Shown here: in pieces, positions 1-43,860 of the stretch | How positions within the stretch are numbered: position 1 is the first letter of the stretch | Layout: every line of letters starts with the position of its first letter | Assembly: GCA_001687465.1 (NCBI GenBank) | Contig: LVLI01000079.1 | Location: forward strand, 62,001-126,000 | Direction: 5' to 3' | DNA from: Halocafeteria seosinensis | Lineage: Eukaryota | Length of the DNA stretch: 64,000 nt | Notes under the pieces: model-generated | The model's database searches: none | Told to the model about the DNA's origin: nothing | Seen by the model: the letters and a program-made list of their open reading frames with translations, nothing else | Position numbers and translations under genes: made by a program

Positions 1-3000
1 ATGAAATACGGTCACTGTGTTCTGTATACTGGAAGCCGTGGCTAACAGTTTGTTGGGTCGGGGAAGATGGACGCCACGGAGGTATTTTCTTCTTGTGGTC
101 TAGGTGCGGTGAAACGGCTGACAGCATCTGACGAGGTACTAAACGGTCGTTTGGGCCATCGGTACCGCGAGAACCATGCTGGGATGGGATTGCTTTCCCA
201 TTGTGTGCGGTTTTCTCACTTTGAGAAACGAGGGTGGCGCGGCGCATCTCTACAATGTTTTTGAATCGCGCACGTTCATCCTCAAGCCGAGACACTCCAT
301 ACTTTAAGGTCCTCTCCTTTTCTTCTATGGTCTTCAGAAGCTCTTTACTGTTATTCCCTGGCTGTCCCACCTGAGAGTACAAGTGGGAAAGACAGTTGAC
401 CGCTTCTGCGATCTGCCTTTGGGACCCATAGAGCACAGATAACATCGTTGAGATACTAAACGTTGCCTCCCCATTCTGTTTACAATCCTCGATCTCCACG
501 GAAGCATGCTTCTGCACAATATACCGTCGAATCGCTCGTTGGATACGCAAGGCAGCATCCCTCGTCCGTTGCTTTTCTTCATTAGCCTCTTGGTTTTGCG
601 TCCCGCTGACTGCTTCTTGTTTTTTCTGAGCATTGTAAGCGTCTCTCATCTGACGCGCTAGCCACTTCGAAACGTTGAAATCTTCTGCAATACTGGAGAT
701 TACGTCAGGTGACGTTTTCTCATTGGTAGGGCGGGATACCGTGTCAGAGGGAGAAGAATCCACTTCACTCTTCCGTTCGACATTCTCCGGCTCGTTGCCA
801 CGATTCCCGACGGCGAAATCCGGATTAAATTTGTTCAACAGCTGTAACGCTCTTTCATAGGATAAGTGCTTTTTCTTTCCCGTCTGTCGAATTAGATAGG
901 AAACATCAAGTCCCGGAGAACTTTCTCTCTGAAGCGCGTCAGCGTTATTCGAAGGCGCAAACTTCCGAAGCTGTTGCCTTCTGCGGAACGATTCTGCCAA
1001 TGACTTCTGGTACAACGAACTATAGGTAGAAGAAACTGAGGAACGCGGTGAGTAGTTTGAATCGCTGTATTCGTGAGTTGAGGACGTATCGATAGTAAGG
1101 TCCGTTTTGGAGTGCGGTGCTTTCGATCCAATTGCAAAAGAACAGTCGTAATCTGCACTTCCTTTGTACCCTTTTGCCGACTCGCCCCAGGCATTGGGCT
1201 CCCGCCTCGAAAATGAATTTGCTACTGCATGCTCAACGTTGTTCTCCTGTCTCATTTTAGAAATTGCAGCACTGGTTGCAGTCGAAGTACTCGTAGTGAT
1301 TCCCCATGTTACCTTGTTATCCGTGGAGCTGTTTACAATGTTGGAGTCTTTACTACTTGCCACTTGAAATCCACCTATCTGTCCCTGATCCAAAATGCTG
1401 TCACCTGCCAACCCCTGTCGCGAAAGCGTATTCTTCACCGAAGTATCAAATCTGTTTTCCTGCTTGGATGACTTAACTGTTGAGTCTGGAGCACTGATTC
1501 CAGTCCAAACCCTGGTAGAACCAGGTTCACTGCCTGTCACTTGCAGCCCGCCCGCGCCCTTATTATCGCCTGTGTACGCGGTAAAGGTGGTATCGGTTTC
1601 CGAGGAAGTACCAGCAGGTGTCGTGGTTGCTTGCTTTGGAGTGGAGTTTACTGTCTGCTTACTTGACACCGTCGTTTCTGCGAAAGAGGATCCAGATTCA
1701 GCAACCAAACTCGCTCCTTGAGTGTCTGCTGTAGTAAAGACGTCACTACTGGGTACAGTAGGTGCATCCATGGACCACACTTGGTGAGTAGTCACTGGTA
1801 CAATATCGGAAGAGCTGCCGGTTTCGGTGTCCAGCGACGTCCACACTCCTGTCTCCGCAACGGTTGCCGAGGAAGAGCTCACTGATAGTGCAGGTTCCGG
1901 TTCCGATGCAGCGGCAGCGGCATTCTCCTGTGACGGCTTACTTGACACCGTCGTTTCTGCGAAAGAGGATCCAGATTCAGCAACCAAACTCGCTCCTTGA
2001 GTGTCTGCTGTAGTAAAGACGTCACTACTGGGTACAGTAGGTGCATCCATGGACCACACTTGGTGAGTAGTCACTGGTATAATATCGGAAGAGCTGCCGG
2101 TTTCGGTGTCCAACGACGTCCACACTCCTGTCTCCGCAACGGTTGCCGAGGAAGAGCTCACTGATAGTGCAGGTTCCGGTATCGACGCAGCGGCACTCTC
2201 CTGTGACGAGGCAGTCTGGGAGTCCCGATCGGTTTGACTCAACCAGTATCGGGGAGTGTCTGGACTAGAAGTTGCAGCGACGGTGTCTCCACTAGCCTGA
2301 AGTGAGGAATGGTAGTTCCCCATCTTTCCCTCATCCATGACGGGGTATTCTTCCGAAGGAGTTGGCGGAACTGAAGCTCCAGCAGAGTATTGTTCCTCTT
2401 GTGGGTCAGGCATTGAATTGGGAGGAGGGGGCGGTGCTCCAGGTGGACCACGCTCGTGATATGGCATGGCACCAGGTGCGTGTGAAAGAGGCTGTTTTGA
2501 TTGGGAATCACGCGAGGACGCTGCATACCGGACAGAACAAAGTCAATAGGCAGTAGCGGTTTCACAAAACGAAGGTACTGACGAACCTGGAGGAGGGGGA
2601 AGTGGGGGTGTGGGACTATCATCTCTCTTCGCGTGTTCTCCTGCAGTAAACAACATGTATTGACGCGCAGCAGCCAAACATGTTTGGTAGTGCGGGAATT
2701 TCTTACTCGGAACGGTGGTTGTGTTGCCTCCTTTGGGAGGTGCTGCAGACGACGTCGTATGGGCAAGTTTGACAACAGTAGATCAACATAATAATGCTAC
2801 CTCAGCAATCCTTACTTGCTCTACCCCCGTCATTCGAAGGAGCTGGGGAGGGAGGGCGTTCTGAAATGAAATCAGCAAGTAAACGTATCACAAGGGCTGG
2901 TAAACTCAGTAGCAGCTTACTTGGTCTAGGAGCGTAGTCCCAGTAATCTTGAGGGGGTTGCGGAGATCCTGTATAGCAAGCGTCGAGGGGCAGGTCATGC

Positions 3001-4534
3001 ATGAAAGGAGTAATCTTCTCAGTAGTCACCTTACTTGATCTAGCAGCGTAGTCCCAGTAATCTTGAGGGGGTTGCGGAGATCCTGTATAGCAAACGTCGA
3101 GGGGCAGATCATGCATGAAAGGAGTTCTCTTCTCAGTAGTCGTCTTACTTGATCTAGCATCGTAATCCCAGAAGTCTTGAGGCTGTTGAGCAGGTTGAGG
3201 GGGTGGCGGTGTTCCTGTGGTGAACAAAACAGGAATGAGTCGATCACGCATAAAGAATAAATCGTTTAGCAAAGACTTACTTGATCTAGCATCGTACTCC
3301 CAATAGTCTTGAGGGGGTGGAGGTGCTCCTGTGGCACAACATTGCCTGGCAGTGGCCGCATGAAGAGAAGCAGTAGCAAGCATCAAGGCCTTACTTGGTC
3401 TAGCATCGTAATTCCAATACACTTGCGGGGGCGGCGGTGCTCCTGTATTGTAACATCAGAATGTAGGAGGGGGCATGACTGGAACCAGCTCATCTGAGTG
3501 ATGCCTTACCTCTAACGTCGTAACCCCAATAGTCCTGCGGGGGTGGGGGTGCTCCTGTACATTGCAAAGTCGACATGTAGAAACCGCACGGGTGGAAGTA
3601 TTTCTTCTTGGTGACCACTTACTCGATCTACCATCGTAATCCCAGTAGTGTTGAGGGGGTGGAGGCATCCCTGTATTTCCGAATCAATAGGTAGAGACGG
3701 CATGAGCGGAAGAAGTTCGTTTAGTATTCTCTTACTTAATCTAGCATCATAATCTCCGTAGTCTTGAGGGGATGGCGATGCTCCTGCATTGTAGAACGGA
3801 CAGGTAGAGACCACATTGATGGACGAGTTCGTCTCGACGATATCTTACTTGATCTAGCATTGTAACCTCGATAGGATGCTTGAGGAGGTGGCGGTGCTGC
3901 TGTCCCTCTGGCGCCTGTATTGTGGAATCGACACACGGCATTACATTACAAATTGTATGAGTGGGCACGAGCTTCGTCTCAGTGATATCTTACTTGATCT
4001 TGGATCGTATTCCCAATAGTCTTGAGAATAGGACGGTGATTCTGCATTGCCAAGCCGACAGATCGGGACCACATACGGGAAGAAGTTGATCTCAGTGCAG
4101 TCTTACTTGATCGAGGAAGATTCTTCGCAGGAGGCGGAGTCGGTGGTGGAGGTGGTGGTGCTGCAGTGCAAAGACAGTGGGTCGCTAAATATACCTCGAG
4201 ACTTCACTCCCTAGAAGAGTACCAAACTTACATTCGGTTCGTATGGTTCGGCCTCCCTTGGCTTGTTTCTTCGCGGGGAGAGGCGGTGGCGGCGGAGAGT
4301 TCTTTTTTTCTGCACACACACAACAGTAAATCACCAAATCGTATACATAAGCGTAAAGTTGAATCATTGCAACGTACTTGCGGTCGCGCGTTCCTGACTT
4401 CCACTTCTAGTAGGGGGAAGAGGGCGGCTAGCCGCCGGCTGCGTTGGCGCAGTTGACCGCCAGGGTGAACGTGAAGTTGTTCGTCCAGCCGTTGACGGAG
4501 GCGGGCGACCGGTGGACCTCTGCCTCCAAGCCAT
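1..4534 (-). CDS. Large multi-exon Pro/Ser-rich protein with tandem micro-exon repeats and an IQ-like motif; 3' end runs off the window
   Basis: Manual splice model: ATG at 4534, exon 4378-4534, then 15 small exons separated by phase-1 GT..AG introns of 60-79 nt, then an open frame from 2520 to position 1 with no stop. That frame contains AALRIQRAIRRYIVQK (IQ-like). The ORF track misses it because no stop lies in the window. Confidence 0.8.
1657..2207. repeat. Near-identical 279-bp (93-codon) tandem duplication inside the long exon
   Basis: cttacttgacaccgtcgtttctgcgaaagaggatcc at 1658 and 1937; the offset of 279 preserves the frame. Confidence 0.95.
2921..4106 (-). repeat. Array of 10 exon+intron units (~114 bp period) encoding PPPPQDYWDYDARS-like peptides
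   Basis: Exons 2921-2968, 3035-3082, 3149-3214, 3281-3328, 3395-3442, 3510-3554, 3623-3670, 3736-3783, 3849-3914, 3994-4041. Each is followed by GTAAG and preceded by CAG on the minus strand. Confidence 0.92.
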
Positions 4535-19123: not shown

Positions 19124-21381
19124 ATGTCGTCCGCGGAAGGAGCTCAAGAAGAGAAAAATAAAGGCAACAAGGCTCTGCAGGAGCAGAGGTTCGACGAAGC
19201 CATAGCGCACTATAACAAGGTATGTGGAATGAGAACGTGGGTCAGAATGTTCGACAAATCGAAGGAAACTTTTGCACTCTCGGGAGATCGTGCTGGGTCA
19301 TTGGCGTCATGAGTGTAATTCATGTCTCCTATTGGATTTTCATGGGGTATGTGTCTTCGCTGCTGCTCGACTCGCAGGCCATTGAACTGGATCCTAGCCA
19401 GCACGTGTTCTTCAGCAATCGGTACGTGTAGAAGCGAACTTTATCACTTCTTCCTTAGGAAGATACTTGAAGCATCACTTTATTTTCGAAATCACAGATC
19501 AGCAGCATACCTATCCAAAGGGGATGCTCAGAATGCGTTCGAGGACGCGAACAAATGCGTCGAAATCCAACCGAACTGGCCAAAGGGTTACAGTCGAAAG
19601 GGGGCTGCACTCCATGCATTGGGACGATACGATGAAGCCATTACGACATATGACGAAGGGTTGAAGCAAGATCCAAACAATGACAGCTTGAAATCGGGCA
19701 AGGAAGAAGTCCTTAAAGCGAAGAATGCTCCTGCCGGTGGAATGGGCGGCATGGGAGGCATGCAAAACCCTTTCGGCCCCGACATGTTCAACAAACTCGC
19801 CCTGCACCCCAAGTATCGTGAATATTTGAATGACCCAGACTTCAAAGAGAAGCTGACAAAGTTGCAACGGGACCCAAACTCTTTTGCTTCTATGATTGGA
19901 GAAGACAACAGGATAATGGAGGTCTTGAGCTACCTCATGGGGATCCCAATGGGTGAAGGTGGCCAAGATGGAGGCGATCAAGGCCACGCCGCTGGGGCAA
20001 CTGGCGCGGCCGGTGGACAGCAATCACAACCTGAGGAGAAACCAAGTTCCAAGGAGGAAGAGTCTAAGCCGCAGAAGAAGGAAACTCCCGAAGAAAAAGA
20101 GGAGAGGGAGCGCAAAGAGAGGGCCGAAGCAAAGAAGAATGAAGGCAACCAGTATTACAAGAAGAAGGAATTCGACAAGGCCCTGGAATTGTATGATGAG
20201 GCCATGGAGATCGATCCCCATGACATTCGGTATCGTCTCAATAAGGCGGCTGTGTACACGGAACAGAAAAACTACGAAAAGGCTATTCAAGAGTGCCAAG
20301 ATGCATTGGAATATGGTAGAGAAAACAAGGCTCCGTTTGCTCACCGAGCGAAAGTAAGTACCAAGCCGAATGCTCGAGGAGCCGGACGTGGGTTTCATTG
20401 AGGTTTGGATGCAGGCGCTCGAGCGCTTAGGGAACATCTATAAGAAGAGGGAAATGTATGACGAAGCAATCCAAGCATATGAGGATAGCTTCACCGAATC
20501 TTACTCGGAGAGTGTCAATACGAAGTTGAAGGAATGCAAGCGTATCAAAAAGCGGCTTGAGGAGGAAGCCTACAGGTACGCTCTTTAACGCCATGTCGCC
20601 ATTGGTTGAAGCCTGTTACGTGATTGCTGCTTGTACTCTACATACAGAGATCCCGAGAAGGGAGAAGAAGCAAGAGAGAAAGGAAACGAGTATTTCAAGG
20701 ATGGCAAGTTCACGGAAGCGATAGAGTCCTATACAGGTACGACCGTGTGCATATGACCAGTTCGTTGCTCTTTGCTTGGCCTATTATGAACCTCATATAC
20801 GTTGTCAAGTTCAGAAGCTATCAAGCGTAATCCCGATTGTGCGAAGTACTATTATAACCGGGGAACAGCACGTACCAAGATTATGGATTTCTACAAGGCT
20901 TATGAAGATATCAACAAAGCTCTTGAAATGGACCCCAATTATGTCAAAGCATGGGCGAGGAAAGGCAATATTGAATTTGTTCAAAAGGAATACCACAAAG
21001 CCATCGATTCTTTCAAAAAGGTAAGTGCGTCACTGAATCGAGGTGCATTTAACATTAAGGAAGCCATTCATTGGTTAACACAATTTGAGGACACAGGGGC
21101 TAGAATTGGACAAGGACAACTATGAGTGCCAGGATGGGTATCAACGTACAATTATGAAGATCAACGAAAGCCAAAGTGGCGAAACGGATCAGGAGCGTGT
21201 TGCCCGTGCAGCTTCAGATCCTGAAATTCAACAGATCATGCGGGATCCGATGGTATCACAAGCATTGCAAGACATGCAAAACGATCCACAAGCCTCTCAG
21301 AGAATAATGAGTGATCCTCATATTGGTCCAAAAATTGAGAAACTGGTTGCCTCAGGTATTCTCCAAACAAAATCCCAATAG
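19124..21381 (+). CDS. STI1: Hsp70/Hsp90 organizing protein (TPR1-DP1-TPR2A-TPR2B-DP2)
   Basis: EEKNKGNKAL, SNRSAAY, WPKGYSRKGAAL, DPEIQQIMRDP, KIEKLVASGIL; multiple introns. Confidence 0.96.
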
Positions 21382-21388
21382 ACATAGA

Positions 21389-24300
21389 TTACACCTTGTT
21401 CGAAATATCACCGTTGAGGGCATTTCTCCCGTTCTCTTCCGTTCTCAAGGGGTTTATAACGTTCATGTCGGAATCGGAATCGCTTTGTCGCCTGACCTTC
21501 TGCCAAAACTCTTCTTTTGCTTCGCCTGATATCGTCAACCTTCTCCCACTGTGCAGCTGTAATTTTTGTAATTTACTGCTTCCGACGTCTTTCTTCTTCA
21601 TTAGGCCACAGGTCAGTATGTGGCGGCGATCTTCGTAGAACCACCGCTCCATATAGTTGTGCAGAAGCCACAAAACTATCAGTAGACTATATTTTACTCC
21701 GACAACAACTGTTGATTCGCAACGCAGCCGGATGTGACGTCAACGGGTATCGAAGAACTACTTGAGATATTCACTTACCAACAGCAGCTGAGTAAAACGC
21801 AACCATCTCATCCCTCGCCTTACTACCCCGGACAAGCGCCATTGCAGCCAAAATTCCAAAATCGAACCCAACTTGAACTGCAATATAATACCATATCGGC
21901 AACCTCCTGGTATCTTTGACCCAGTCATAAGTAATCCTTTCAGTTCCGGGAGAGACGAAAACACTGGATATAATCTCCCCCAGATGAGCCAAGTTACCAC
22001 GCCAATACCCCTGCAACAATCACTCTTAATGAGACACGGAGGATGTGGACAACGACGCACACGCGCACGCACCACAGTAAGCAGGAGCTTGGAGCCCAAA
22101 GTTATTCCAAGGAACGCAGCAATATTAAATGAGCCATTTTCATCAAGTGGAAGTGCTTCCATTGCTAGCGATATCGTCGCTATATTTGACAACACTTCCA
22201 TGGAGCGGAAAGCAGCTAAGAACACTATAGAAAACGAAAGCGTGCTGACCCACGGCTTATCAACGGCATTTCCCCTGGAAGCATGTAATAGTAGCACATG
22301 TACGTGTAATTCGCATCGAATTATTTATGGCGTAAGATCTACATACCAAGCACCAATCTTTTGCCGATCACTTTGAGTGATTGCGCCAACCTGTGTCAAA
22401 GACAGTCATAGCATTCATCGTTCTCCAACCGACCAGGAGTAAGCGTCTTACAATACTGAGGAATGAAATACCGATCGAAGAGAGCAAGATCACTCCTGGG
22501 TCCTCTGAGTCCAATGCCACAAATGACTGCAGAAGAACTTGGGGTGCTGCCTCAAGAAGCGCTTCCATTAGTTTCAACCGCTGGATGGACTGCAATACTA
22601 AAATATCTTTTTGTGTAACTAGCAGATCAGGCAACGCAGAATCATACGACGAGCTTACCGCTAGGCCCTGCATAGGCTGCGATGTATCAATCATGATGGT
22701 TGCCGAGGGAACCTGAGTAACGCAATCGTAAAAGACAAATCAGTATTCAGGTAGTTTAGACATTGGAGACTTACCTGTCCTCGTACCACAAAGTTGAACG
22801 CGTCCAGGACAATGGAAAGGGAAAATGGATGCAAAACGCTGGCCATTATTCGTCCATCGGCACAAAGAGAGTAAGAAACGTAGATAACCGCCAAAGCTAC
22901 TACCGCGAGAAGGAACAGAAATGTCTCCCATTGCCCTGCGGCGGCAAGTTGGCCCAACACCTGCAATCATTCGACACAAAGTTTGAACCCGAAGAACACA
23001 TTCTACAATAGCGTTTTGGGGTCCTACCACCAGATCCAGGAAATAATCGATCAGGTTAACTACGGCAGAACCGACGGCAATCATTTTTGGTATTGAACAG
23101 CCCGCAGGCACTAGCATTTTGTAGCAGCCTGCGATGAAAGAAATGTTAGCAAAATGCAAAGTTGTCTTCAAAACACCATCGATAGTAGTCCCCACCATGA
23201 AGTTGTACTCTGTTCACTTTCGAAGAAAACGACTTGTTGTGAGCTTCCTCCTCTTGTAACCTCTTCGATGTAACATCAGGCGGCGTAAACGTAAGTGAAT
23301 CCCCGTGGCTATATAAAATTTCTCCCTGTGTTCATCGGAATAACATATACACCCCGTGTTTTCGACCGACATAACGAACTAAACCTTACATCGAGTATAC
23401 ATCCTTCGTCATCCACATGTATTGTTACTACCCTTCCATCTAGAAGGATGAATTCCTCCTCTTTCGAATTAGGGAAAACCTCTTCATCTTGCCTGTCCAG
23501 GAGATGCACTATGAAAGCGATTTGAGCTATTATTTCCTCCGAGTTCGAAATCCCACTGTAGTCCACCCCTATGACACTTGTATGGTGCTTTGCTATACGG
23601 AATGCACAAGCCTCTCGAACGTATCTACCTGTACAATTGTACAACAGTGGACAAGGCACGGATGCATCCACAGCAAGCCCCCAAAATCCCATGTCTTCTT
23701 GTTTACCCACCTTCGACGCCTGAACCAGTGAGGTTCAGCTTTTGCTTTTCACCTTTAACAGCTATGCAGTACTCGGCAAGACTGAAGATCAACCTATTGC
23801 TTATGGGACACTCTGCACCAGTAATGAGGTGATCGGTATAAAGCTGATTGCGAATTATCACGAAACCGCACCTGACAAGTCCAATATCCGCACGTTCGGA
23901 CAAAATTTCAGAGCATCCAGAACCGGAGCAAGAGTGTAACTAAGCTTCATCTGATTGCCAGATAATGACAGTAAGTTCAAGGACTTATTCTTCAATAACG
24001 CCCGTGAGAACGTCTCCGTCGCTGTGATCCTGTATTACCCAGTGGACTCATTTTTTAAAATCAGTCGGTTTCACTAGGTCCGAACCTGGAAGAAAAACTT
24101 ACATTTTATTCACGACAGGATCAACATGCTTATTCTTGTCAAACGTGAACATATTTTTTCCTATATACAGGCGGGTGATAGCAGTGCGATCTTCTAACAG
24201 TCGGGATAGTTGAGATAAGCTGCAACGTAAACGATGGGAGTAAGCATGTACACTATCAAAAGAATTCGTAAAGATTTCTTACCCCGCATCACTCAAAACA

Positions 24301-25017
24301 TTATCTTCTAGGTTCAGTTGATGAATCGTCGTGTTGTTTAACAGCGCTTCTGTTAGACTTGTCGTCCCTGAGTCACCGATGCTGTTCCCTTTCAGCGACA
24401 GCATGTTGATGAACTGATTCTGTGATAATGAGGTTGCTAGCATATTCGCTCCCTCTGGTCCAATGTTGGTATCCTGCATTGAATGAAATAGCACAATTCC
24501 GTTGGTTGAATTGCTTCAACTTCAAGAGGAAGATGCGGTTGTACAGCTGGCAGCACTCTCTTTTCATACCTCTAACCTGAAGCTCCTTATCGTGGTGTTC
24601 TTCGTTAGAGTGGCGGCTATAATCTTCATGAGCCATGGTTGTGTTATATCGACTTTCTCAACGGTAAGTACACTGCAAAGGCCAGGTAGCGAAGGTATGA
24701 GCATCTGTTTTAACCACCGCGCATCGCCAAGTATGGCGTTATTTGTCTACATACCGAACTGTTTCATTCGTCTGTAACAATATGAACAACGCTGCAAGGA
24801 TCCTCCCTTTTGCAACGTCGTCTCCTTGGAGCTGATCCCCAGCAATTTTGACCTCAGTTGTCTCGCTTGCAAGTACATTCCTCAGGGTTTCCCCTACGTC
24901 TCCCTGAGTTGCTTGAGCAATTTCCCTGGCTTTCGTATGGTCTGACGCTTCCAGAGCATTGGCTGCCCTTCGAGAAACACTCACACTCCTTGATGATGCA
25001 CTTCGTCCTCTATCCAT
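21389..25017 (-). CDS. RNI-like LRR + XK-related membrane domain protein, copy A
   Basis: LRR: NIGPEGANMLATSL..LSLKGNSIGDSGTTSL..LNLEDNVLSDAG. XK: NLIDYFLDL and LKLMEALLEAAPQVLLQ plus several TM segments. Linker exons join in frame through GT-AG introns. Confidence 0.75.
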
Positions 25018-26189
25018 CTTGCAGAGGCGCTAACTCCTGTAGCAAGAGGGAAGAACAACGAAAAGAGCTTGTCAGGGCTACCAGTAGGGGAGAGGGGGTT
25101 TTCTTTCGCCTCTCCCTATCACGATTCGAGACTTTCTCGAAATTGAATATTTGCAGACCCGAGTCAACAGAGGCCATGCATCCACACCTTTATATAAAAG
25201 AATCTTGTATCAACCCTGTTGACTCAAAAGCGCTACAACGCACCCTCCTGTGTCTCCTCCCTCACAGCGGGGAAGCGCCAGCAAGACGGAGCCGCAATTC
25301 AGCCGGCACGGCACCCCCGGAGAAAGCCGTCGGCAACAGAGAAACGCCGACTAAATTCCAAATTCTTGCAGAAGTCTTTTTCTCTGAAGATATGTATACA
25401 TACGACATGTATCTGTGCATTTTCTCTTCTGGTCGTGTGTAAGTAAAACTGAAAGCCAATGTGACTCGACACACCCGGCCAAGTTTATGTGCCGGCAAAT
25501 GCGACCCAGGCTGCCTTGCCGCTGGTGACAAACTTCACATGTACTGTAGTCGGGAGGAGAAAGTTTCTCCGAGAAACACCACAGCATTTTCTCCATCGAG
25601 CTATAGAGTAGCCTCATCATGAGCGATGGAAAGCTCATGACGTCTACAGACAGCCACCCTTATCAAGTATACAACGCCTCGCCGAGAAGGCAGCCGGTGA
25701 AAGCGGTAAACTGAACTTCCTACCGAGATTCGATCGTAAAGCTCAACGTACACAATGTTGTAGTAAGCAGTTGAACACCTTCATGTGAACATTTAATTTT
25801 TCGTGGTAACTATGTCGTTTGAAACCAAAGAAGAAGCCGGCATTTATTGTACTGCACATTTCGCTCTCCCTCAGAGTTCGCAACAGCGAACACTCGCAGA
25901 ATGCCGAGGTACACGGTCTGTGGATCATGGGCCTATCCTCTACCCAAAGACCAACGAATGTATGTCAAAAACCCATCAGGTAAGCATGCGCTTACTGTTT
26001 CCAGTGAATACGCTCTTCACTCATCGCCAAACAATACTCAAGACGTTTCCTTCGATGACAGTTCAAGGTAAGTTTTCTTCGGTAGTACAGATATATTAGA
26101 CAGTTAAACCTACATGAAAGCTCTCTAGAGCGTAAACTGGATGGCAAGACACTCCAGCAATGCTCGACTGTTTGACCCTCTTAATTGCG

Positions 26190-29100
26190 TCATATTATGT
26201 CGTCCAGTTCCGAGTCTTTTTCCTTCCTTTCGCCACTCCTATTGGCATTCTCCGAAGGTGGAGATGGCGACTGTGATTCTGCGGAACTGTCCGTGACGAT
26301 TTTGAACCAATTTCCGGTAGAAGGCCTTAACTCTTTTGACGGATTGGTCTTCTTGAAAGTAAAATCGTCCAATTCTCTTCCCCGGTAAGGCTTCTTCTTA
26401 AGGATTCCGCAGGTCAGTATGTGTCGCCGATCGGTGTAAATCAGTCCCGAGCAATAGTTGTGCATTAGCCATAGTAAGATAACAACGGCATACTTCCCAC
26501 ATACAACGCCTGTTACGCCCAGTCGATGTACACACTATCTAGGACAGCATTATTAGAGCTTTAAGAGAACTCCACGTACCTATGGCTCCAAAGTATAAGC
26601 GATCATCAATGGACACTCCTTCAAAGACTCGTAGCAGGGCTAAAATGCTTGAGTCGTAGACAATTTGCACAGAAATGTAAAACCACACATTCAACCTCTG
26701 AACATTCTTCACCCAATCGTATCTGCAGGAGGATTCTCGATCTCAGAATTATTAAAATCCCTGATCGTTGAGTGCGTTCTTACGTGATTCTCTCCGTGCC
26801 CGGACTGATGAAAACAGAGGAAAATACTTCGCCAAACTGAGACACATTCCCTTTCCCTGAAACCATCAAAGAATGAACGGAAAATATCGACTATGATGAA
26901 TCTACCTGATGGTCGCCGACAGCTTACAGTAGATCTGCACCGCATAAATCCAAAGGATATTGCGCTACTTGATAATGACTATCCCCACGAAGCTAACTTA
27001 CAATTATCAGCACCAGCTTACTGCCCAGGACCATGGCGACAGTGATAGGCGGTGGAAATGGAAAGAAATTCAAAGCAAGCGAAACCGTAGCTATGTTGGA
27101 AAGGACTTCCAATGTGCGGAAGGCCGCAAAAAGAAATATCGAATAAGACAACGTGCTGACCCATGTCTTCTCCACAGAATTGCTCCACTGTAGCCGCACC
27201 TCATTACGCTTGTAGGAGCTAGCGTCAACGTAATTTCTTGAATGGCCTGCTTACCGCAGTGATCTTCTGTCTATCACTCTGAGTAGCTGCCCCGATTACT
27301 GAAGCGAAAGACAAAGCAATAGAGAGAACTAGAGCCACGGTAATTCCGCTCCGCAGTACAATAAATGTTTGGAAAAGTATTTGAGGAGATGCTTCCAACA
27401 AAGCTTGTAATAGTTTCAGTCTTTGAATTGCCTGTATCAAATTTCTTGTGTCAAGAAAACGGTATCCGGTTGGATAATTGTACACTTACAGCCAAGCCTT
27501 GCATCGGTTGCGAATTCATCAAAACGATAGTAGAGTTAGGTTTCTTTCCCTTAAAAACAAAATAGTAAGCATCCAGCAAGAGCGAAAATCCAAAAATGTG
27601 TAGAAATGCTGCGAAGCGCCTGCCATCTCCTAGCAAAGAGTAGCAAGTGTAAAGAATTGCCCATAACAGTCCTGCATAGAAACGTACACCGAATATAGGA
27701 ACTGTTCTACCAAATACCATGGAACAGGACAAACCTCCGAGCGCAATCCAAAACGCGGACCAGTCTTTCGCTAGTCCAAGTTGAGCCAATACCTGGAAGG
27801 AAAGCCTACCACGATACAAATCGACCTATAGTGAGGTAAGCTCAAACAGACTTACTGCAATATCCAAACTGAAATCAACAAGATTCATCAACGACATAGC
27901 TGTAGCCATCAGTTTTTGAACTGGACTTGTATGCATCGTGTACGTCCCTGCAGGACACCAAGAGGTAAGTATAGATAAAAGACTCTATGTTCCCGCATGA
28001 CCAACCTGTCAGTTTCAATCGGGTGGTCTTGGAAGAATAGGACACGTTTGGACCTTCTTCCTTATTTATCAGAGTAGAGGGAGGAGGCATTGGAAATTCC
28101 AGAAAATCTCCATGCGTGTACTCTACTTTTCCGGTTTGTATCTGTCCGTTTCTATTATTATATAATGTCACGCTTCGGCCATCAACAAGCACAAATTTTT
28201 CCTTCGCCGAATGAGGAAAAACCTGGCCATGCGGGCGGTTCATCAGGTGGACGAGTAAAGCAAGCTGCCCCATGTTTTCATCCGAATTAGCAACTCCCCG
28301 GTAAGAAACACCCTTCAATGAAACGTCGTGTGACATGACTCGGAGAGCAGCTACTTCCCTCATGGATCTTGCTGCAATTGCAAATGAGAACAGCATTGAA
28401 CTCCCGTGACGTCGTCTTCTACTCTATTACATACCATCTGCTCCTGAATTCGTTAAGTCAATCGTTCTTCTCGTGTTCTTCGTTGCAACGCAGAATTCGG
28501 CGATTGTTAAAAATACACGGTTGGTGAATTTACAACCTGAACAACCTCCCAATTGTATGAGAAACACCGGCCTTTTGTCGGCTCTTGATAATCCCAACTT
28601 ACCTCGGAGCCCTAAATACCGAAGACTCTCGTTGAATTTTAAAGAATCGAAGAACGGAGCTATTGAAAATCTGGAACAATCGAGTGGAACTCTTACACCA
28701 TGAAGTTCGCTATGGGTGTTGACTCTAAAATGCCTTACTTTATAAGAGGCTTATTCATACTCAAATCCAAGACTCGAAGTCTACTGTTTTGCTTAAGTGC
28801 CCTTCCTAAAATGTCACTCATGCGCAGCCTGCAAAGCAGTAGATGTCTGTGAACTCGACAGAACTTAAAGTGATACAAAGCACAATCGCTAGCTCACATT
28901 TGCTTTGCTTCAGAGTCATAGAATTTCTCCTTGCCAAAAGCAAAGTCGTTATAACCGATGTACAGTTCTTCAACTACAGAGGAAGCCAGACCATTTGCTA
29001 GATTAATCATTCTGGTGAGGCATTGCACAATTGCACAATCGCGCATGAGTTAATGTAGAAGTGCGGTATTATTCTCTCATTCGAAACTTACCCGGTATCG

Positions 29101-29775
29101 GTAAATCCGTTCTCCTCCAACGTTATCCTCGATACTTTTTTGTTTTCTGCCATGAACCCTTGAATATGCTCCGTCCCACCATTCCCCAAAGGATTTCCGG
29201 AGATTGTTACGTCAGTGATGGTCTTATTCCTTTTCAGTGAATTCGTCAGCAGAGCTAAGCTATTGTCATTCAGGTTAGCGTTCTGTAGCCAAAGGTCAGC
29301 CCTTATAAAAACCACTATGTACAACGCAGCACGAACTCAGTAACTACCATACTTTGAGCACGAGCGTATGTATGGTAGTGTTGAACGAAATCGCCGCTGC
29401 CAGTACTTTCAGTACCCATTCATCAACTAGATCAACACCATTCACTTCCAAGAATCTGGATACCAACAAGACAACAATTGTACTTGTACACTACGGCTCC
29501 GCGCTTGCACTCAGCGGAAGTCATGAGACTTACTCGACAGAAATATTAACTTGCAGTAGTACGAAGAGTGCTCCCAGCAGTTTGAGATCCGCAGCACTTT
29601 CGTCTTTTAAACCTCCCCTTTCATCTATCACAACCGACCTACTCGTATCGGCTATTATCCCGGCGAGGACGTCCCCAAAGTGACCGGAGGCGGCAGTTGC
29701 TAATTCCCTCGCGAGATTGATGTCACGAGGGGCTAAACTGGAGCGTGACTGTCGACTTCCTCGCTTCTGTGACAT
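26190..29775 (-). CDS. RNI-like LRR + XK-related membrane domain protein, copy B (tandem paralogue)
   Basis: Collinear similarity to copy A: LLGALFVLLQVN, NPLGNGG..LEENGFTDTG, LVHLMN..VFPHSAKEKFVLVDGR, LKLLQALLEASPQILFQ, FAAFRTLEVLSNIAT, DRRHILTCG. Confidence 0.75.
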
Positions 29776-30619
29776 TGTATCCCTGCAAACCCAAGCGGCA
29801 ACAACAGAAGAAAAAGTGTCGGCCAGGTTGGCGGCACTCGCCCCACTCAGGACGCCTGTCGCAAACCGATCCCCCTTTTTTTTGGCTTGAATGCTTTCTC
29901 AAGAGTCACACGGCACACTCTAAACGATGCCAAGGGAAGCTTGTAGTGGTATCGTCCGTGCCTGTCTGTTCAACACTCTATCGAGTGATTCACACCCCTG
30001 CTTCCTCCCTTCAAGTTGCAAGGCTCAGTCGCGCCGTTAGCAAGATGACTTACGTTGTCGCTAACTCTGTCGCAAACAGACGCAAATACCAGCTTGCCGT
30101 GCGGTACTTGATGATTTGAGCCGTATCAGTGCATTAGACAAAAAAAAACAATAAGAGACACCGAAGACTAATAAGTTGCTCGAGGCCTGTGAGGCTCCAG
30201 ATATCCGAGCTACCCAGCAGTCGCCCTGCGACCTGGTGTTCCAACGGTTCGAACCATGAGCCTGTCGACTCAGTGTCCAGTCGGTGTCGGTTGGTTGGTA
30301 AGAAAATTGAATGCCACTGGCTCGCAGCTGCGACGGTACGCATGAATGGAACCACGTCGGGATGCAATGTACATTATTAATGTATGAAGGTGGAACACTA
30401 CCCACGATTTTTTGAATGAAGCTACGTCGCGGGAACGCAAGTTAGCCTCGTGCAACAGGCGGAGGGATAGTCTCAAACCTTTTGGATAAATTCGTCGCAT
30501 TGCGTTCTTTCTAAGTCCAACAAATCAGAACTCCTTATGTCACAACACCGAAGCATCCCAGGCCAATGCATCATCGCTGGCGCAGAGTTTCCGCCGCAAA
30601 AAGAACTTGGGAAGTGTCG

Positions 30620-39302: not shown

Positions 39303-39582
39303 CAAAAAGATTGCATAAACTGTCTTTCGATTACATCATAGGTTGAAGTGGTTGGCCCTATTGATAGAGTACAGTGTTAATACACACTTTGGCGTGTGAA
39401 GTCACCTCGTCATGGAGATTAATTGCTAATGATTCATACTTTGATAGTGTTGTACTGTTAGTCACTCATAGTTTGTCAATAGCATCAGAAATGTATGTCA
39501 ACTGTGCATGCAGTACAACACAATTATATTATCTCTGTAAACGTGTATACGTATTCGGGAAGGTCCCAGGGAGCATCAAATC

Positions 39583-42500
39583 ATGCAGGGCACTAACGAG
39601 AGTGAGGATGACGATTGGGGTGATTTCTCCCTGTCCATGAGCGATACAGAGGAAGAGAATGAAGTGAATATAGCTCAAAGTGGTCATGGAATGTCCCCAC
39701 CAGCTACATCTAGCAGTAAGGAAGAGGAGTATGACCAGGAGAATCAGCGTCTTATGTCGCATGACCAAGATGACGAGGCATCGACAGCCATTGCAGAGGA
39801 GCGAAAAAGTTCGTCTTTGATGATTTTCGCAGTCGGGTTGTTCGTGGCGTTGCTGTTTTCGCTGGTACTTGGAGTGCTCTTCGGACACTCCCACGTTAAG
39901 AATTGGGTGAAGCCCTCGCACTCAGGGAATGCTGGACACAAACAGGAAGAGTTGACCCTGGTGGCCTGGTGTCACCCCAAGAAGGCTGAATTTCCAGTTT
40001 TTGCTCTTCGAAGAGCCCCGTCATTGAGTGACTTTGCGTCGGACGAGTTACTGCAAGCCATTGGGTTGGACGGCGCAAGAGGACAGTTTAAAGTTGTGGC
40101 ATACGAAAAGAGCGAGAGTCCCACTCGAAGATATCCCACAAAAATACAGGGAGTTAACAAGTCGGCGGACTGGAGGTTTGATAGGCTTAGTGACGACACA
40201 GGATACACACCGTCACCACACCACCATAGCATTCCGTGGCCAATGCCGATTGCCGTAAATTTCTCGCAGTGGACCACCTCTTTCTGCGAATCGACTTCTT
40301 GCAAGTTGGAGTCTAAGCGATTTTACGCCGACAACTTTTCTGTGAAGATTCCCCGGAAACAATATGAAGACTTGCATCAGACTGAAAGAAACATGGTGAA
40401 GTACATTGGTGGTAATATCTGTGGCGGCATCACCACTCCGAATGTGCAGTTGGTCGACCACAGCCAGCTCAACTTTCGAGAAGAGACGGATAGGCTCCTA
40501 TGTCGTCCAGCATCTGCGGTTCTACAGCTGGAAGCACTGGAGAGAGGAAGCTATGATTCGGCATTTTCTGGACCGTGTCACTTGTCTATCATGAATCCGA
40601 TAGGCAGTGTGGTTATAATGACAGATAAACTACAGGTGGATCCTGCACCAAGCCATATTCGGACTAGAGCAGAGAACGCTGCTGAGTTGGATATCGCCAC
40701 TGCACATAATGCTGTCAGGTCCTATATGAAACTAAAGAACAGCACGACAACTTGGACAGGAGGTAGTATTTGGCAACCGACAGAACCGCGTTGGCAGTGG
40801 CCGTATGAATCCACATTCCGTTTAAACTCTGCTGCACTCGTTGTCCCGGAATTGGGAATGGACGAGGAGTACTCATTAGAATTGTCTCATTCTCATGAAC
40901 AAGCAAGTGGTGATCCTTCCGTAATGCGCATCAATGCGGCCTCCATTTGGGGCCTTACAAGAGCATCATCCTCTATGAGGCAACTGTACCGGAACACTGA
41001 TGCGCTCATCGATTTTCCGGAGATAAGCGTGGTCGACTCACCCAGGTTTCCTTGGAGAGGAGTCAGTGTTGATACCGCACGACACTTTTTACCCGTACCG
41101 AAGCTGAAAGCCTTGATAGATTCTATGGCTATGAGCAAATTCAACACCCTCCACTGGCACTTAGTAGATTCCCAGTCATTCCCGCTGTTAGTTAGGTTGA
41201 CGCTGAATGTGACCGTCAAAGAATATGCCAATTTTTTCAACTGGGCGAGAGGATATATCTCACAACTTTACTCAGGAGAGAAGTGCCCGGCACAAACCTA
41301 CTCGATTCCAGCATCCAGCTTCGTGGATAGCCCACACCCTTTAGAAACAAATTTAACGCTTCAGGGCAACTTTACGGCTCCGTGGAGTCGGTCAAAAGTA
41401 TATAGTGAATCTTCTATCAATTATCTTGTTCGGTATGGCGCACTCCGCGGAATTCGTATCGTCCCAGAAATGGATGTCCCCAGTCACGCTGGAGGCTGGG
41501 GTTGCGCGTTCGCTAGATGGGCTCTTGAAGGCGTCTTGAACAGGGAACAGGAGCGAAACCCAAATGGATTTCCTTCGCTTTCCAACGGCAAATCCATAGA
41601 CGATGTATTACGCCAATTTGATGGAGTTCCATGTCCATATCGTTGCAATGGTCCTACGTTGTCCATAGTGTCCCCTTGCCACGGAACTGTCCGAAGCGAC
41701 GATTCTCTCCTGCATGGCATGAACAAATACGCCCTCGACCCTTCTCTTCGCATAACGTATGATGTTGTTCAGAAAATATTGGGCCGCGTGCAGGACCTAT
41801 TCCCGGACAAATGGATGCATTTGGGTGGGGATGAAGTTGCTCCAGAGTGTTGGGGCGGCGTTGATCATATCCACCAATGGGCACTACGCAAAAGGTTAGT
41901 CAATTATGATTCACTATAGAAGTCTGTTCTTACACCTTAATTATTGGTTTGCAGAGATACGACATCGCTACGATTTTTATGGAATTTTTTCACCAAGAGC
42001 ATCCTTAGCCATATCAGGAAGAATGCTATAGTTTGGCAGGATGCGTATGACGAATTGGGTGAACCTATTCAAAATCCACCCAAAGGTTTAGGGAAAACAG
42101 TTGCAGTCCAAACATGGAAATGTTGGGCCGGAATGGATACCAATGCGGCAATGAAAGCGGCCTCAAATTGGGAATCATCTAGAAGAGGAGTCATTCGCTC
42201 ATCGTGCTGGTACCTTGACTGGGAAACGAGCTGGCATCAAGTGTACAAGGATGATCCGTGGCCCCACTTTTCTGGGAGGATGCTTGAAGCGCCCCTCCTT
42301 GTTAATTCCCCTGCAGTATGGGGCGGAGAGGCAGCTATTTGGACTGAGCATATTGACTCTACTAACGTAGGATGTAAATCATTCCCACGATCAGCTGCTG
42401 TCGGAGAGCGTCTTTGGTCCTCTAGGCTACGGGTGACCACCAACGATACTTTACGTACGTGTGATGATGGCGTTTGCACATCCCGTGTCGAAGTATTGCG

Positions 42501-43860
42501 CGAGAGAGCAACAATGCAAAACAATATTTCTTATACTTTGGGTAGACTGTCGGTTTTCCGAGATCGTATCGATCGTGAGACAGAGTTGCGTCCATCTCGT
42601 ATGGTGCCTGCAAACGATAAGCACCACTCGAAGACATGCACAAAAGCAATATCGCAAGGCGTTCAGTGGGCACTACGGCCGCAGGATGTTCTCAACTATA
42701 CGTCGCTGTCAGAGAAGTTTCATTCACTCCCGTATGAGTATTACAGTCCGTCGTTCTCAGAGGGATTGCGGTCGTTTCACACCGTCATATCGTTCAACGT
42801 CGCAGACGGTGGACAAACCAAATTTCCTGCTCAAGTACTTGAACTGGGTAACGAATGTCAGGTTCCCGAAGGTAAAAGGATTATAAAGCCAAGACTCTGT
42901 GAGATCCTGTTATGGCTTAGACAACGGGAAGCCGATGTGGCAGCGCTCGTAGAGCTGAACAACTGGGACCAGGGCGAGGAAGATGTACCAGAAAAAGTCT
43001 TAGTCACGAAATACATGCAGGAAAATGCAGCGTTCGCCGGCTATGCACATTCCGTTCTTCTTCGTGCCAACGAAGGATACCATATGGGGGTTATGTCCAG
43101 ACAACCGATTCAGGTTTTATTTTACGATACCACCAATTTCGAACGAGGAGCACTGGTAGTAGAAATCGACAATATTGTGTATGTGGTTGCTCACCTCCAT
43201 GCCCACAGTTCCCAAGCCCGTCTAGAAGAATGCCGCGTGCTTGCAAAGGTGGTAACGGATATTTCGGCTTCAGGAAAGCCAATTCTAATGCTTGGGGACA
43301 TGAATACGCTCTCACCGAACGACCAAGCCTGGCATCAGCAAGCAGAAATATTGCCTTGGTTGAGGAAGAAGGCACCACGCCGGTTCTCTAAGAAACATGG
43401 TTACATACTTCAGTCTGGACTTGGCCTTCCCGAGGGCTGGAGTAAAGCCGTCTCCACCGACGATATTCCCGATATCTCTATCAATCATGACTCTGCGGAA
43501 AACGAGTTGAATAACGCTATAGCTAATCGCACCCTACTCGACTATCGCCCAATGCACGTACTTTTGGATTGTGGACTACAAGATCTATGCTCTTTGAAGA
43601 AATGGCCCGAAGAGTCCGCAGAAAGGGATATGGAGAAAAAAGCGCCGTCTCCATGTGACTATACAGAGCCAACGGATTACTCCTTGGTGGAGACAATCGA
43701 TGCAAGTGCTGTACCGCCTTTCCGCTTAGACTATGGCCTGGCGAACAATCCGCTGTTGGCGAAGTTTCCAGGTGCTGCATGCACGGTCGTACAAACGAGG
43801 AAGACAGCCCAACTATCTGATCATTACCCAATTGAATGCCGATGGAGGTACTTTGATTGA
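39583..43860 (+). CDS. Type II membrane GH20 beta-N-acetylhexosaminidase fused to a C-terminal EEP-family domain
   Basis: GH20: DSPRFPWRGVSVDTARHF, HWHLVDSQSFP, PEMDVPSHA, HLGGDEV, WYLD, GGEAAIWTE. EEP: ISFNV, LVE, AHL, GDMN, RLDY, SDHYPI. A 60-nt intron at 41895-41954 joins the two ORFs in frame. Confidence 0.9.

Follow-up and report, generated by a model that had tools for sequence, protein, structure and literature searches.

A leucine-rich repeat arm joined to an XK-family membrane domain in tandem genes of Halocafeteria seosinensis

Two tandem genes and their transcripts

The window analysed here, a 64,000-nucleotide stretch of the Halocafeteria seosinensis contig LVLI01000079.1 (positions 62,001 to 126,000 of the forward strand; assembly GCA_001687465.1), contains two minus-strand paralogues in tandem, gene B at 29775-26190 (17 exons, 837 amino acids) and gene A at 25017-21389 (16 exons, 859 amino acids), each of which encodes leucine-rich repeats (LRRs) ahead of a membrane domain of the XK family, to which the Xkr scramblases, lipid-flipping proteins of animals, belong. 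An earlier note, made from the letters alone, had described this layout of N-cap, LRRs, linker and multi-pass domain in both copies, and its coordinates proved exact, from the ATG of gene B at 29775 to the stop codon of gene A at 21391-21389. The motifs on which it relied are also in place: B reads VFPHSAKEKFVLVDGRSVT and GKVEYTHGD in the linker and EASPQILFQ in the membrane domain, where A reads VFPNSKEEEFILLDGRVVT, GEILYSHGD and EAAPQVLLQ, the last word of each set containing the signature E.(A/S)PQ.

The exon models, which were assembled from three-frame translations together with lists of splice sites, contain no stops, and their introns are all GT-AG and 58-96 nucleotides (nt) long. The coding exons of gene B lie at 29775-29534, 29455-29353, 29282-29092, 29011-28898, 28828-28739, 28670-28603, 28536-28435, 28371-28006, 27947-27856, 27792-27735, 27671-27490, 27431-27255, 27187-27002, 26934-26928, 26856-26784, 26722-26580 and 26509-26190, and those of gene A at 25017-24755, 24672-24570, 24473-24283, 24219-24103, 24029-23872, 23812-23711, 23628-23390, 23325-23196, 23128-23028, 22960-22775, 22712-22659, 22589-22452, 22390-22347, 22274-22073, 22010-21779 and 21708-21389. 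The 7-nt microexon of gene B (26928-26934, minus strand), which has no counterpart as a separate exon in gene A, was predicted from the alignment of the paralogues, and seven letters do lie between the joint sides in all three spliced runs described below. Gene B also has a 271-nt intron in its 5' untranslated region (29783-30053, minus strand), as loose contig ends at 29782 resume with sequence from 30054.

Four runs contain the stretch, X1 in unspliced form and X2-X4 in spliced form, the latter three not being on record as RNA and coming from at most two samples of one study. All 15 modelled introns of gene A are skipped in X2-X4, in a single contig per run. For gene B at least 15 of the 16 introns are covered among the 14 joint rows listed, including the linker-to-TM1 intron at 28005-27948 (TM, transmembrane helix), and one X2 contig of 2437 nt, which like any contig is an assembly and not a single molecule, spans the last exon of gene B into the LRR exons. 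The EukProt protein P0001 (837 amino acids), found with the linker exon of B as query, agrees with model B at 836 of its 837 residues, the sole difference being F82Y; as it may share source data with X2-X4, we count all of these as a single line of transcript evidence. The LRR arm and the membrane domain are joined in one reading frame, and A and B are real, expressed fusion genes. The linker runs in frame into the first XK helix, as the earlier note had it, and separate LRR and membrane-domain transcripts were not seen in the spliced contigs or in P0001.

The two proteins are identical at 345 of 829 aligned residues (41.6%); identity is highest in the membrane domain (52%), followed by the linker (43%), the LRRs (34%) and the tail (23%). 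Of the 15 introns of gene A, 11 lie at exactly the same codon position in gene B and a twelfth is offset by 2 nt, so that the tandem duplication is old; both copies have been maintained. The offset intron follows a DRQK motif (22347 in A, 27255 in B); spliced contigs bear out its position in each gene, and it may be a case of intron sliding. No long DNA repeats connect the A and B copies (the best is 41 nt at 80%), and no third copy was found in the window.

The XK membrane domain and its relatives

The membrane domain comprises residues 431-757 of B (26433-27933, minus strand) and about residues 440-779 of A (21632-23114, minus strand). The Pfam XK-related model (PF09815; cut-off 24.8 bits) scores 28.4 with exon 12 of B, 25.0 with the whole of P0001, and 26.2 in A for exons 11-12 read together with the in-frame intron. 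An AlphaFold2 model of the gene B protein was built from an alignment of 44 partly fragmentary rows (predicted local distance difference test score, pLDDT, 84.3, and mostly above 80 in the XK part; predicted template modelling score of the whole chain 0.78); a fold from the single sequence reached a pLDDT of 40 and was discarded. When the model was compared with 48,161 solved chains, the best match was XKR8 (Z score 26.0, root-mean-square deviation (rmsd) 3.1 Å over 288 residues, model 431-757 on XKR8 7-345), and XKR4 (Z 24.5) and XKR9 (Z 24.2) matched over the same part. Eight TM helices and the re-entrant helices are present in the predicted model in two repeats (ND and CD) that align to XKR8, and the family profile, run against 177,635 PDB sequences, gave four hits at E<=1, all of them in the XK family (XKR4, XK, XKR9 and XKR8). 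The model almost certainly represents a complete XK fold over both internal repeats, resembling in this the XKR8/XKR9/XKR4/CED-8 group (PF09815; PDB 8XEJ, 7P16, 9BOJ; Z 24-26, rmsd 3.1-4.1), and the assignment of the multi-pass domain to the XK family, first made by eye, is borne out by the XKR8 match and the Pfam scores, with no failure to match the XK fold seen.

The linker and membrane domain were also searched against 1.84 billion representatives, which gave 24 hits; 17 of these were scanned, the seven shortest fragments being left out. XK is above the Pfam cut-off in 13 of the 17, LRR_6 in four (P0003, P0007, P0011, P0021) and ankyrin in two (P0020, P0021), such that relatives in other microbial eukaryotes join the same XK domain to LRRs, to ankyrin repeats or to both. 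The search for this architecture in other protists, which the earlier note had proposed, was in this respect fruitful. P0020, P0021, P0036 and P0018 have ankyrin repeats, LRRs with ankyrin repeats, or two LRR blocks, and their second membrane-domain repeat contains long insertions. P0002 (838 amino acids, 57.5% identical to B) shares its assembly prefix with P0001, and we treat it as a third paralogue; other fragments of about exon length hint at additional copies here or in close kin. The metagenome locus L001 has the full layout, including the N-cap, in DNA of higher G+C content; a GT-AG intron there lies at most one base away from a shared intron position. Pattern matches amounted to a relative in one of 234 cases in metagenome contigs and in none of 70 in viral contigs. 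In a tree of 16 XK domains A, B and P0002 make up a clade (100/98), which belongs to a group shared with P0026, P0004 and L001 (99/100); the tree settles such shallow groupings but not the deeper forks. In the cluster of P0004, P0027 (654 amino acids) has the NCBI label Symbiodinium sp. KB8 among members that are otherwise metagenome records, and the label may reflect a co-assembled organism.

Scrambling by Xkr8 requires D26, D30, K134, E137, E141 and R183 (PMC8500837). Mapped through the alignment of the family profile to PDB sequences, on which the placing of R183 in particular depends, all six are found in A (D462, D466, K554, E557, E561 and R603) and five of six in B (D450, D454, K542, Q545, E549 and R590), where glutamine replaces E137. 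In the alignment XKR4 has alanine at this same site; XKR4 scrambles, relying on D125, D129 and E313 (PMC12334663), which align with D26, D30 and E141 of XKR8. Across the 16 family rows, at 20-60% identity, D450, D454, E549 and P552 (B numbering) are invariant, and the K134 site is kept in 14 of 16, the E137 site in 14 of 16 and R or K at the R183 site in 9 of 15. The acidic stairway residues are conserved, and A and B largely keep the Xkr pattern of D-x3-D in TM1, K-x2-E-x3-E-x2-PQ in TM3 and the equivalent of R183.

Given one transcript, RI-class LRRs (see below), a complete predicted XK fold and scrambling residues that are largely kept, a scramblase is likely, and on the strength of these sequences we think that A and B probably scramble lipids. 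Several observations pull the other way. Identity to the solved XKRs is only 11-15%; the R214-D295 pair of XKR8 is changed, with asparagine (N626) at the R214 site in all six close relatives and arginine in six distant rows; the R98-D129 pair is absent; and the site of the W45 gate is alanine or threonine (A469/T481), with a tryptophan (W467/W479) two residues before it, the loop here being variable in length. Moreover, purified XKR9 gave no scrambling in liposomes (PMC8298096), so that fold and residues are no guarantee of activity. An invariant R619, two turns before N626, and D707 might substitute for the R214-D295 pair. The low identity and the changes at the R214 and R98/D129 sites would suit an XK-fold protein that does not scramble at all but serves as a membrane scaffold, a contact-site tether or a carrier for some other cargo, with the LRR as adaptor, and scrambling has been shown for only some members of the family (PMC8298096, PMC12334663). 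However, D450, D454, E549 and P552, invariant in 16 of 16 rows, are exactly the residues tied to scrambling in XKR4 and XKR8, and we regard a non-scrambling scaffold as unlikely.

The leucine-rich repeat arm and the question of defence

In B the N-cap and the solenoid of ribonuclease inhibitor (RI) class, with about 9-10 strands, a 28-residue period and C-cap helices, extend over residues 16-347 (28241-29730, minus strand); in A the corresponding region, placed by alignment to B, covers about residues 24-355 (23498-24950, minus strand), with repeats starting at 113, 141, 169 and 197. A PDB sequence search with the N-terminal part is led by ribonuclease inhibitor (E 3.5e-8) and also returns axonemal LRR proteins and NLRP LRRs. 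The LRR part of the model matches RI (Z 24.9, rmsd 4.5, 289 aligned), NLRP3 (24.8), a trypanosome doublet LRR protein (24.1), NOD2 (23.3) and RanGAP (22.9), and the matches listed by Foldseek are all LRR proteins, with CARMIL at the top and several axonemal proteins ranked high. As RI, NLRP3, NOD2, axonemal proteins and RanGAP match about equally well, the earlier description of the repeats as 'RNI/NLR-type' holds for the RI class but not for the NLR type, which is not singled out: in the model the LRR is of RI class, without preference for immune receptors. No Pfam LRR model is above its cut-off in A or B (the best, LRR_6 in A, reaches 22.1 bits against 23.4), and a check for both domains by profile on one protein, which the earlier note had suggested, therefore succeeded for XK (25.0 in P0001) but not for the LRRs. 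The best whole-protein match in the Atlas (score 0.86), a lead only, is to a cluster in which 12% of the members have LRR_6 and 11% have XK. Although A and B share the 28-residue β/α repeats and Z scores of up to 24.9 with RI-class proteins (ribonuclease inhibitor, NLRP3/NOD2, RanGAP, CARMIL, axonemal proteins, tropomodulin), they lack NACHT/NB-ARC, PH and the other partner domains found in those families, and differ in the fusion to a multipass membrane domain and in a hairpin insertion after the fifth repeat, which is common to the close relatives.

Which partners might such an arm read? The termini of XK proteins are intracellular (PMC12334663) and neither A nor B starts with a hydrophobic leader in the sequence or in a hydropathy scan, so that the LRR is probably cytosolic and could read only intracellular partners. 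The earlier note had proposed a ligand-gated sensor for defence or cell death, that is, an immune-type sensor-effector in which a ligand from a pathogen or from damage is sensed by the LRR and the scramblase opens in response, with phosphatidylserine exposure, death, engulfment or fusion as the outcome. The match of the LRR fold to NLRP3 and NOD2 is in its favour, as are the presence of at least three paralogues (A, B and P0002) in one transcriptome assembly, with exon-sized fragments suggesting more, and the occurrence of LRRs, ankyrin repeats or both within the same XK clade; the swapping of LRRs and ankyrin repeats is typical of receptor families. However, axonemal LRR proteins and RanGAP match equally well as NLRs, and a hypervariable concave face was not found in four pairwise comparisons, which at 20-28 positions each have low power. 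Exposed strand positions in seven repeats, set against the rest of the LRR region, gave 5/28 vs 47/165 for A and B (p 0.36), 14/28 vs 91/165 for the comparison with P0002 (p 0.68) and 7/24 vs 36/143 for that with P0026 (p 0.80); in the comparison with L001 the exposed positions were more conserved (10/20 vs 35/141, p 0.03, as one of four tests). Among the exonic allelic differences listed for gene B, 17 of 20 are silent, and the three that are not (F82Y, T169A and V315I) are mild and fall in the LRR part. With exposed positions no more variable than the rest, the diversification read earlier into the divergence of the copies is not supported. Furthermore, P0001 has no Pfam hit to NACHT or NB-ARC at E<=1 and the model has no room for such a domain, the C-terminal 69 residues of A and B contain no caspase-type DxxD, and the genes on either side are of a housekeeping kind, with STI1/HOP to the left of the pair and Vma12 and a short-chain dehydrogenase to its right. 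An immune role of this sort therefore seems improbable to us, and the partner of the LRR in A and B is more likely a conserved component of the cell than a variable foreign ligand.

The connector sheet and a possible built-in regulator

Between the LRRs and TM1 the model places a five-stranded β-sheet, the connector, at residues 348-430 of B (27934-28240, minus strand; strands 360-364, 370-375, 381-387, 393-397 and 423-429) and, by homology, at about residues 356-439 of A (23115-23497, minus strand; the linker regions of A and B are 43% identical). One further strand, 518-525, is predicted in the loop before TM3; as no other strand follows residue 430 in the model, its partner in a sheet must lie in the N-terminal module. 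The connector sheet would then pair with this strand and clamp the LRR/β module at the cytosolic face of the membrane domain. The connector has no match among PDB sequences (best E 0.69), and its leads in the Atlas are only of LRR type, with scores below 0.9. At 28006-28240 of the window it resembles a worn MORN-type β-hairpin sheet, a likeness that is clearest in P0007 (residues about 330-395); no MORN hit for the connector was obtained in Pfam or in the PDB sequence searches.

The predicted arrangement recalls that of XK (XKR1) with VPS13A, in which a hairpin before TM3 of XKR1 pairs with strand 7 in the PH domain of VPS13A, so that this domain comes to lie over the cytosolic pocket that is filled by the C-terminal peptides of XKR8 and XKR9; in simulations the PH domain opened TM1-TM4 of XKR1 (PMC9436381, bioRxiv 10.64898/2026.01.07.698282). 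Like A and B, XKR1 has no caspase site (nor has XKR2), and in both cases the cytosolic loop that precedes TM3 contributes a β strand to the sheet of a soluble domain, in A and B by prediction. The systems differ in that A and B would have a single strand where XKR1 has a hairpin, and a partner sheet in the same chain, leading into the LRR solenoid.

We consider it an even chance that each gene encodes a membrane protein in which an RI-class LRR and a small β-sheet ahead of an XK domain form a cis-docked regulatory, partner-binding arm of a scramblase. Lipids would cross along TM1 and TM3, as in XKR4 and XKR8; the LRR/β module would lie in the cytosol, by XK topology; the connector sheet would pair with the strand before TM3 and thereby occupy, at the cytosolic face, the position that the PH domain of VPS13A has on XKR1; and the clamp would be shifted by a cellular partner bound to the LRR, or by tail phosphorylation, so that scrambling would be tuned without caspases. 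Against such a regulated arm, the connector is poorly conserved in distant relatives; the clamp is read from the secondary-structure listing of one model, built from the 44-row alignment, and not from coordinates; and a reconstituted XKR1-PH fusion scrambled at a rate comparable to that of XKR1 by itself (PMC9436381, bioRxiv 10.64898/2026.01.07.698282), so that docking at that site need not gate.

Alternatively, the scramblase might be constitutive, with an LRR that merely anchors it, without gating, to the cell cortex, the flagellar apparatus or a lipid-transfer contact site. The precomputed hit of P0001 to PF27087 (LRR_TMOD-LMOD) would fit such an anchor, as would the high Foldseek ranks of CARMIL and of several axonemal proteins and the partnership of XK with the lipid bridge VPS13A (PMC9436381, bioRxiv 10.64898/2026.01.07.698282). 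On the other side, tropomodulin and leiomodin give lower structural scores (Z about 15), the module is packed in the model onto the membrane domain at a known regulatory site, and kinase-type motifs are enriched in the tails. A passive anchor accordingly appears to us to have little likelihood.

The tail of A (21392-21631, minus strand), which is probably disordered judging from the low-confidence tail of the B model, contains two basic kinase-type motifs, RRLT and RRQS, and no DxxD. The tails of six close relatives contain 11 matches to R[RK]x[ST], compared with 2.2 in shuffled sequences, none of 2000 of which reach 11, for a motif chosen post hoc and in rows that are related; the matches are in four of the six, A among them, and there are none in B or P0002. 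XKR8 can be activated when its tail is phosphorylated (PMC8500837). The C-termini of B, P0002, P0004, L001 and P0026, which are otherwise unalignable, end in acidic-hydrophobic words (ELDDII, VDEDIV, VDVDEL, VDLGDFG) that may be a sorting or pocket-binding peptide, as at the C-terminus of XKR9.

XK domains and RI-class LRRs are each known already, and Pfam labels such proteins automatically; we found no description of an LRR-XK fusion in the literature, in coverage that lay outside subscription journals and supplements. What is new is the predicted connector sheet between LRR and TM1, whose expected pairing with the strand before TM3 suggests a built-in regulator. Compared with the Xkr scramblases, A and B bear a predicted cytosolic LRR/β module of 430 residues, and they come from a unicellular eukaryote, whereas the family is described as conserved from nematodes to humans (PMC12334663). 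The nearest precedent in a protist is that of the Pirsonia integrin-like proteins, in which an XK-related domain is also fused to repeat domains (PMC13524835); these, however, are FG-GAP/EGF repeats and not LRRs, and XK-related appears there as a domain label only.

How Xkr proteins are switched is unsettled, as cleaved and uncleaved structures are alike, some purified members are inactive, and the cytosolic pocket is only suspected to be regulatory (PMC8298096, PMC12334663, PMC9436381, bioRxiv 10.64898/2026.01.07.698282). A naturally occurring XK protein that brings its own soluble module, with docking predicted at the cytosolic face, would allow gating to be tested in one chain, and its rigid 430-residue arm would be a built-in marker for cryo-electron microscopy. 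It also raises the question of the role of an Xkr protein in single cells, where there are no macrophages to receive a signal. A wider and rather doubtful proposal is that microbial eukaryotes possess caspase-independent receptor-scramblases, in which an XK core is combined with interchangeable cytosolic sensors (LRR, ankyrin or both), clamped in cis at the site of the VPS13A-XKR1 contact, and in which partner binding would directly switch lipid asymmetry; if true, the regulatory socket reused at the VPS13A-XK interface would be ancient and would predate animal apoptosis.

Several minor features of the window deserve mention. The ends of STI1/HOP (plus strand) and gene A (minus strand) are 7 nt apart (21381-21389), and the two transcripts must overlap; their spliced contigs are merged. 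Within 24993-25700, a plus-strand GT-AG intron at 25439-25509 is skipped in run X4, and a 149-codon ATG frame at 24993-25442, antisense over the start of gene A, may belong to a divergent or antisense transcript; contigs also span about 25900-26180, between genes A and B. The unspliced run X1 differs from the window at one position in 4,440 nt over gene A (21200-25639) and at dozens over gene B (26183-29828), an abrupt switch, at about 25,600, from near-homozygous to polymorphic sequence. Farther away, at 39541-43860 (plus strand), two long neighbouring frames, by eye a beta-hexosaminidase followed by an endonuclease/exonuclease/phosphatase-type domain, are possibly a single fused gene, and a frame at 2802-3455 (minus strand) contains repeated P-P-P-Q-D-Y-W-D-Y-x-A-R units.

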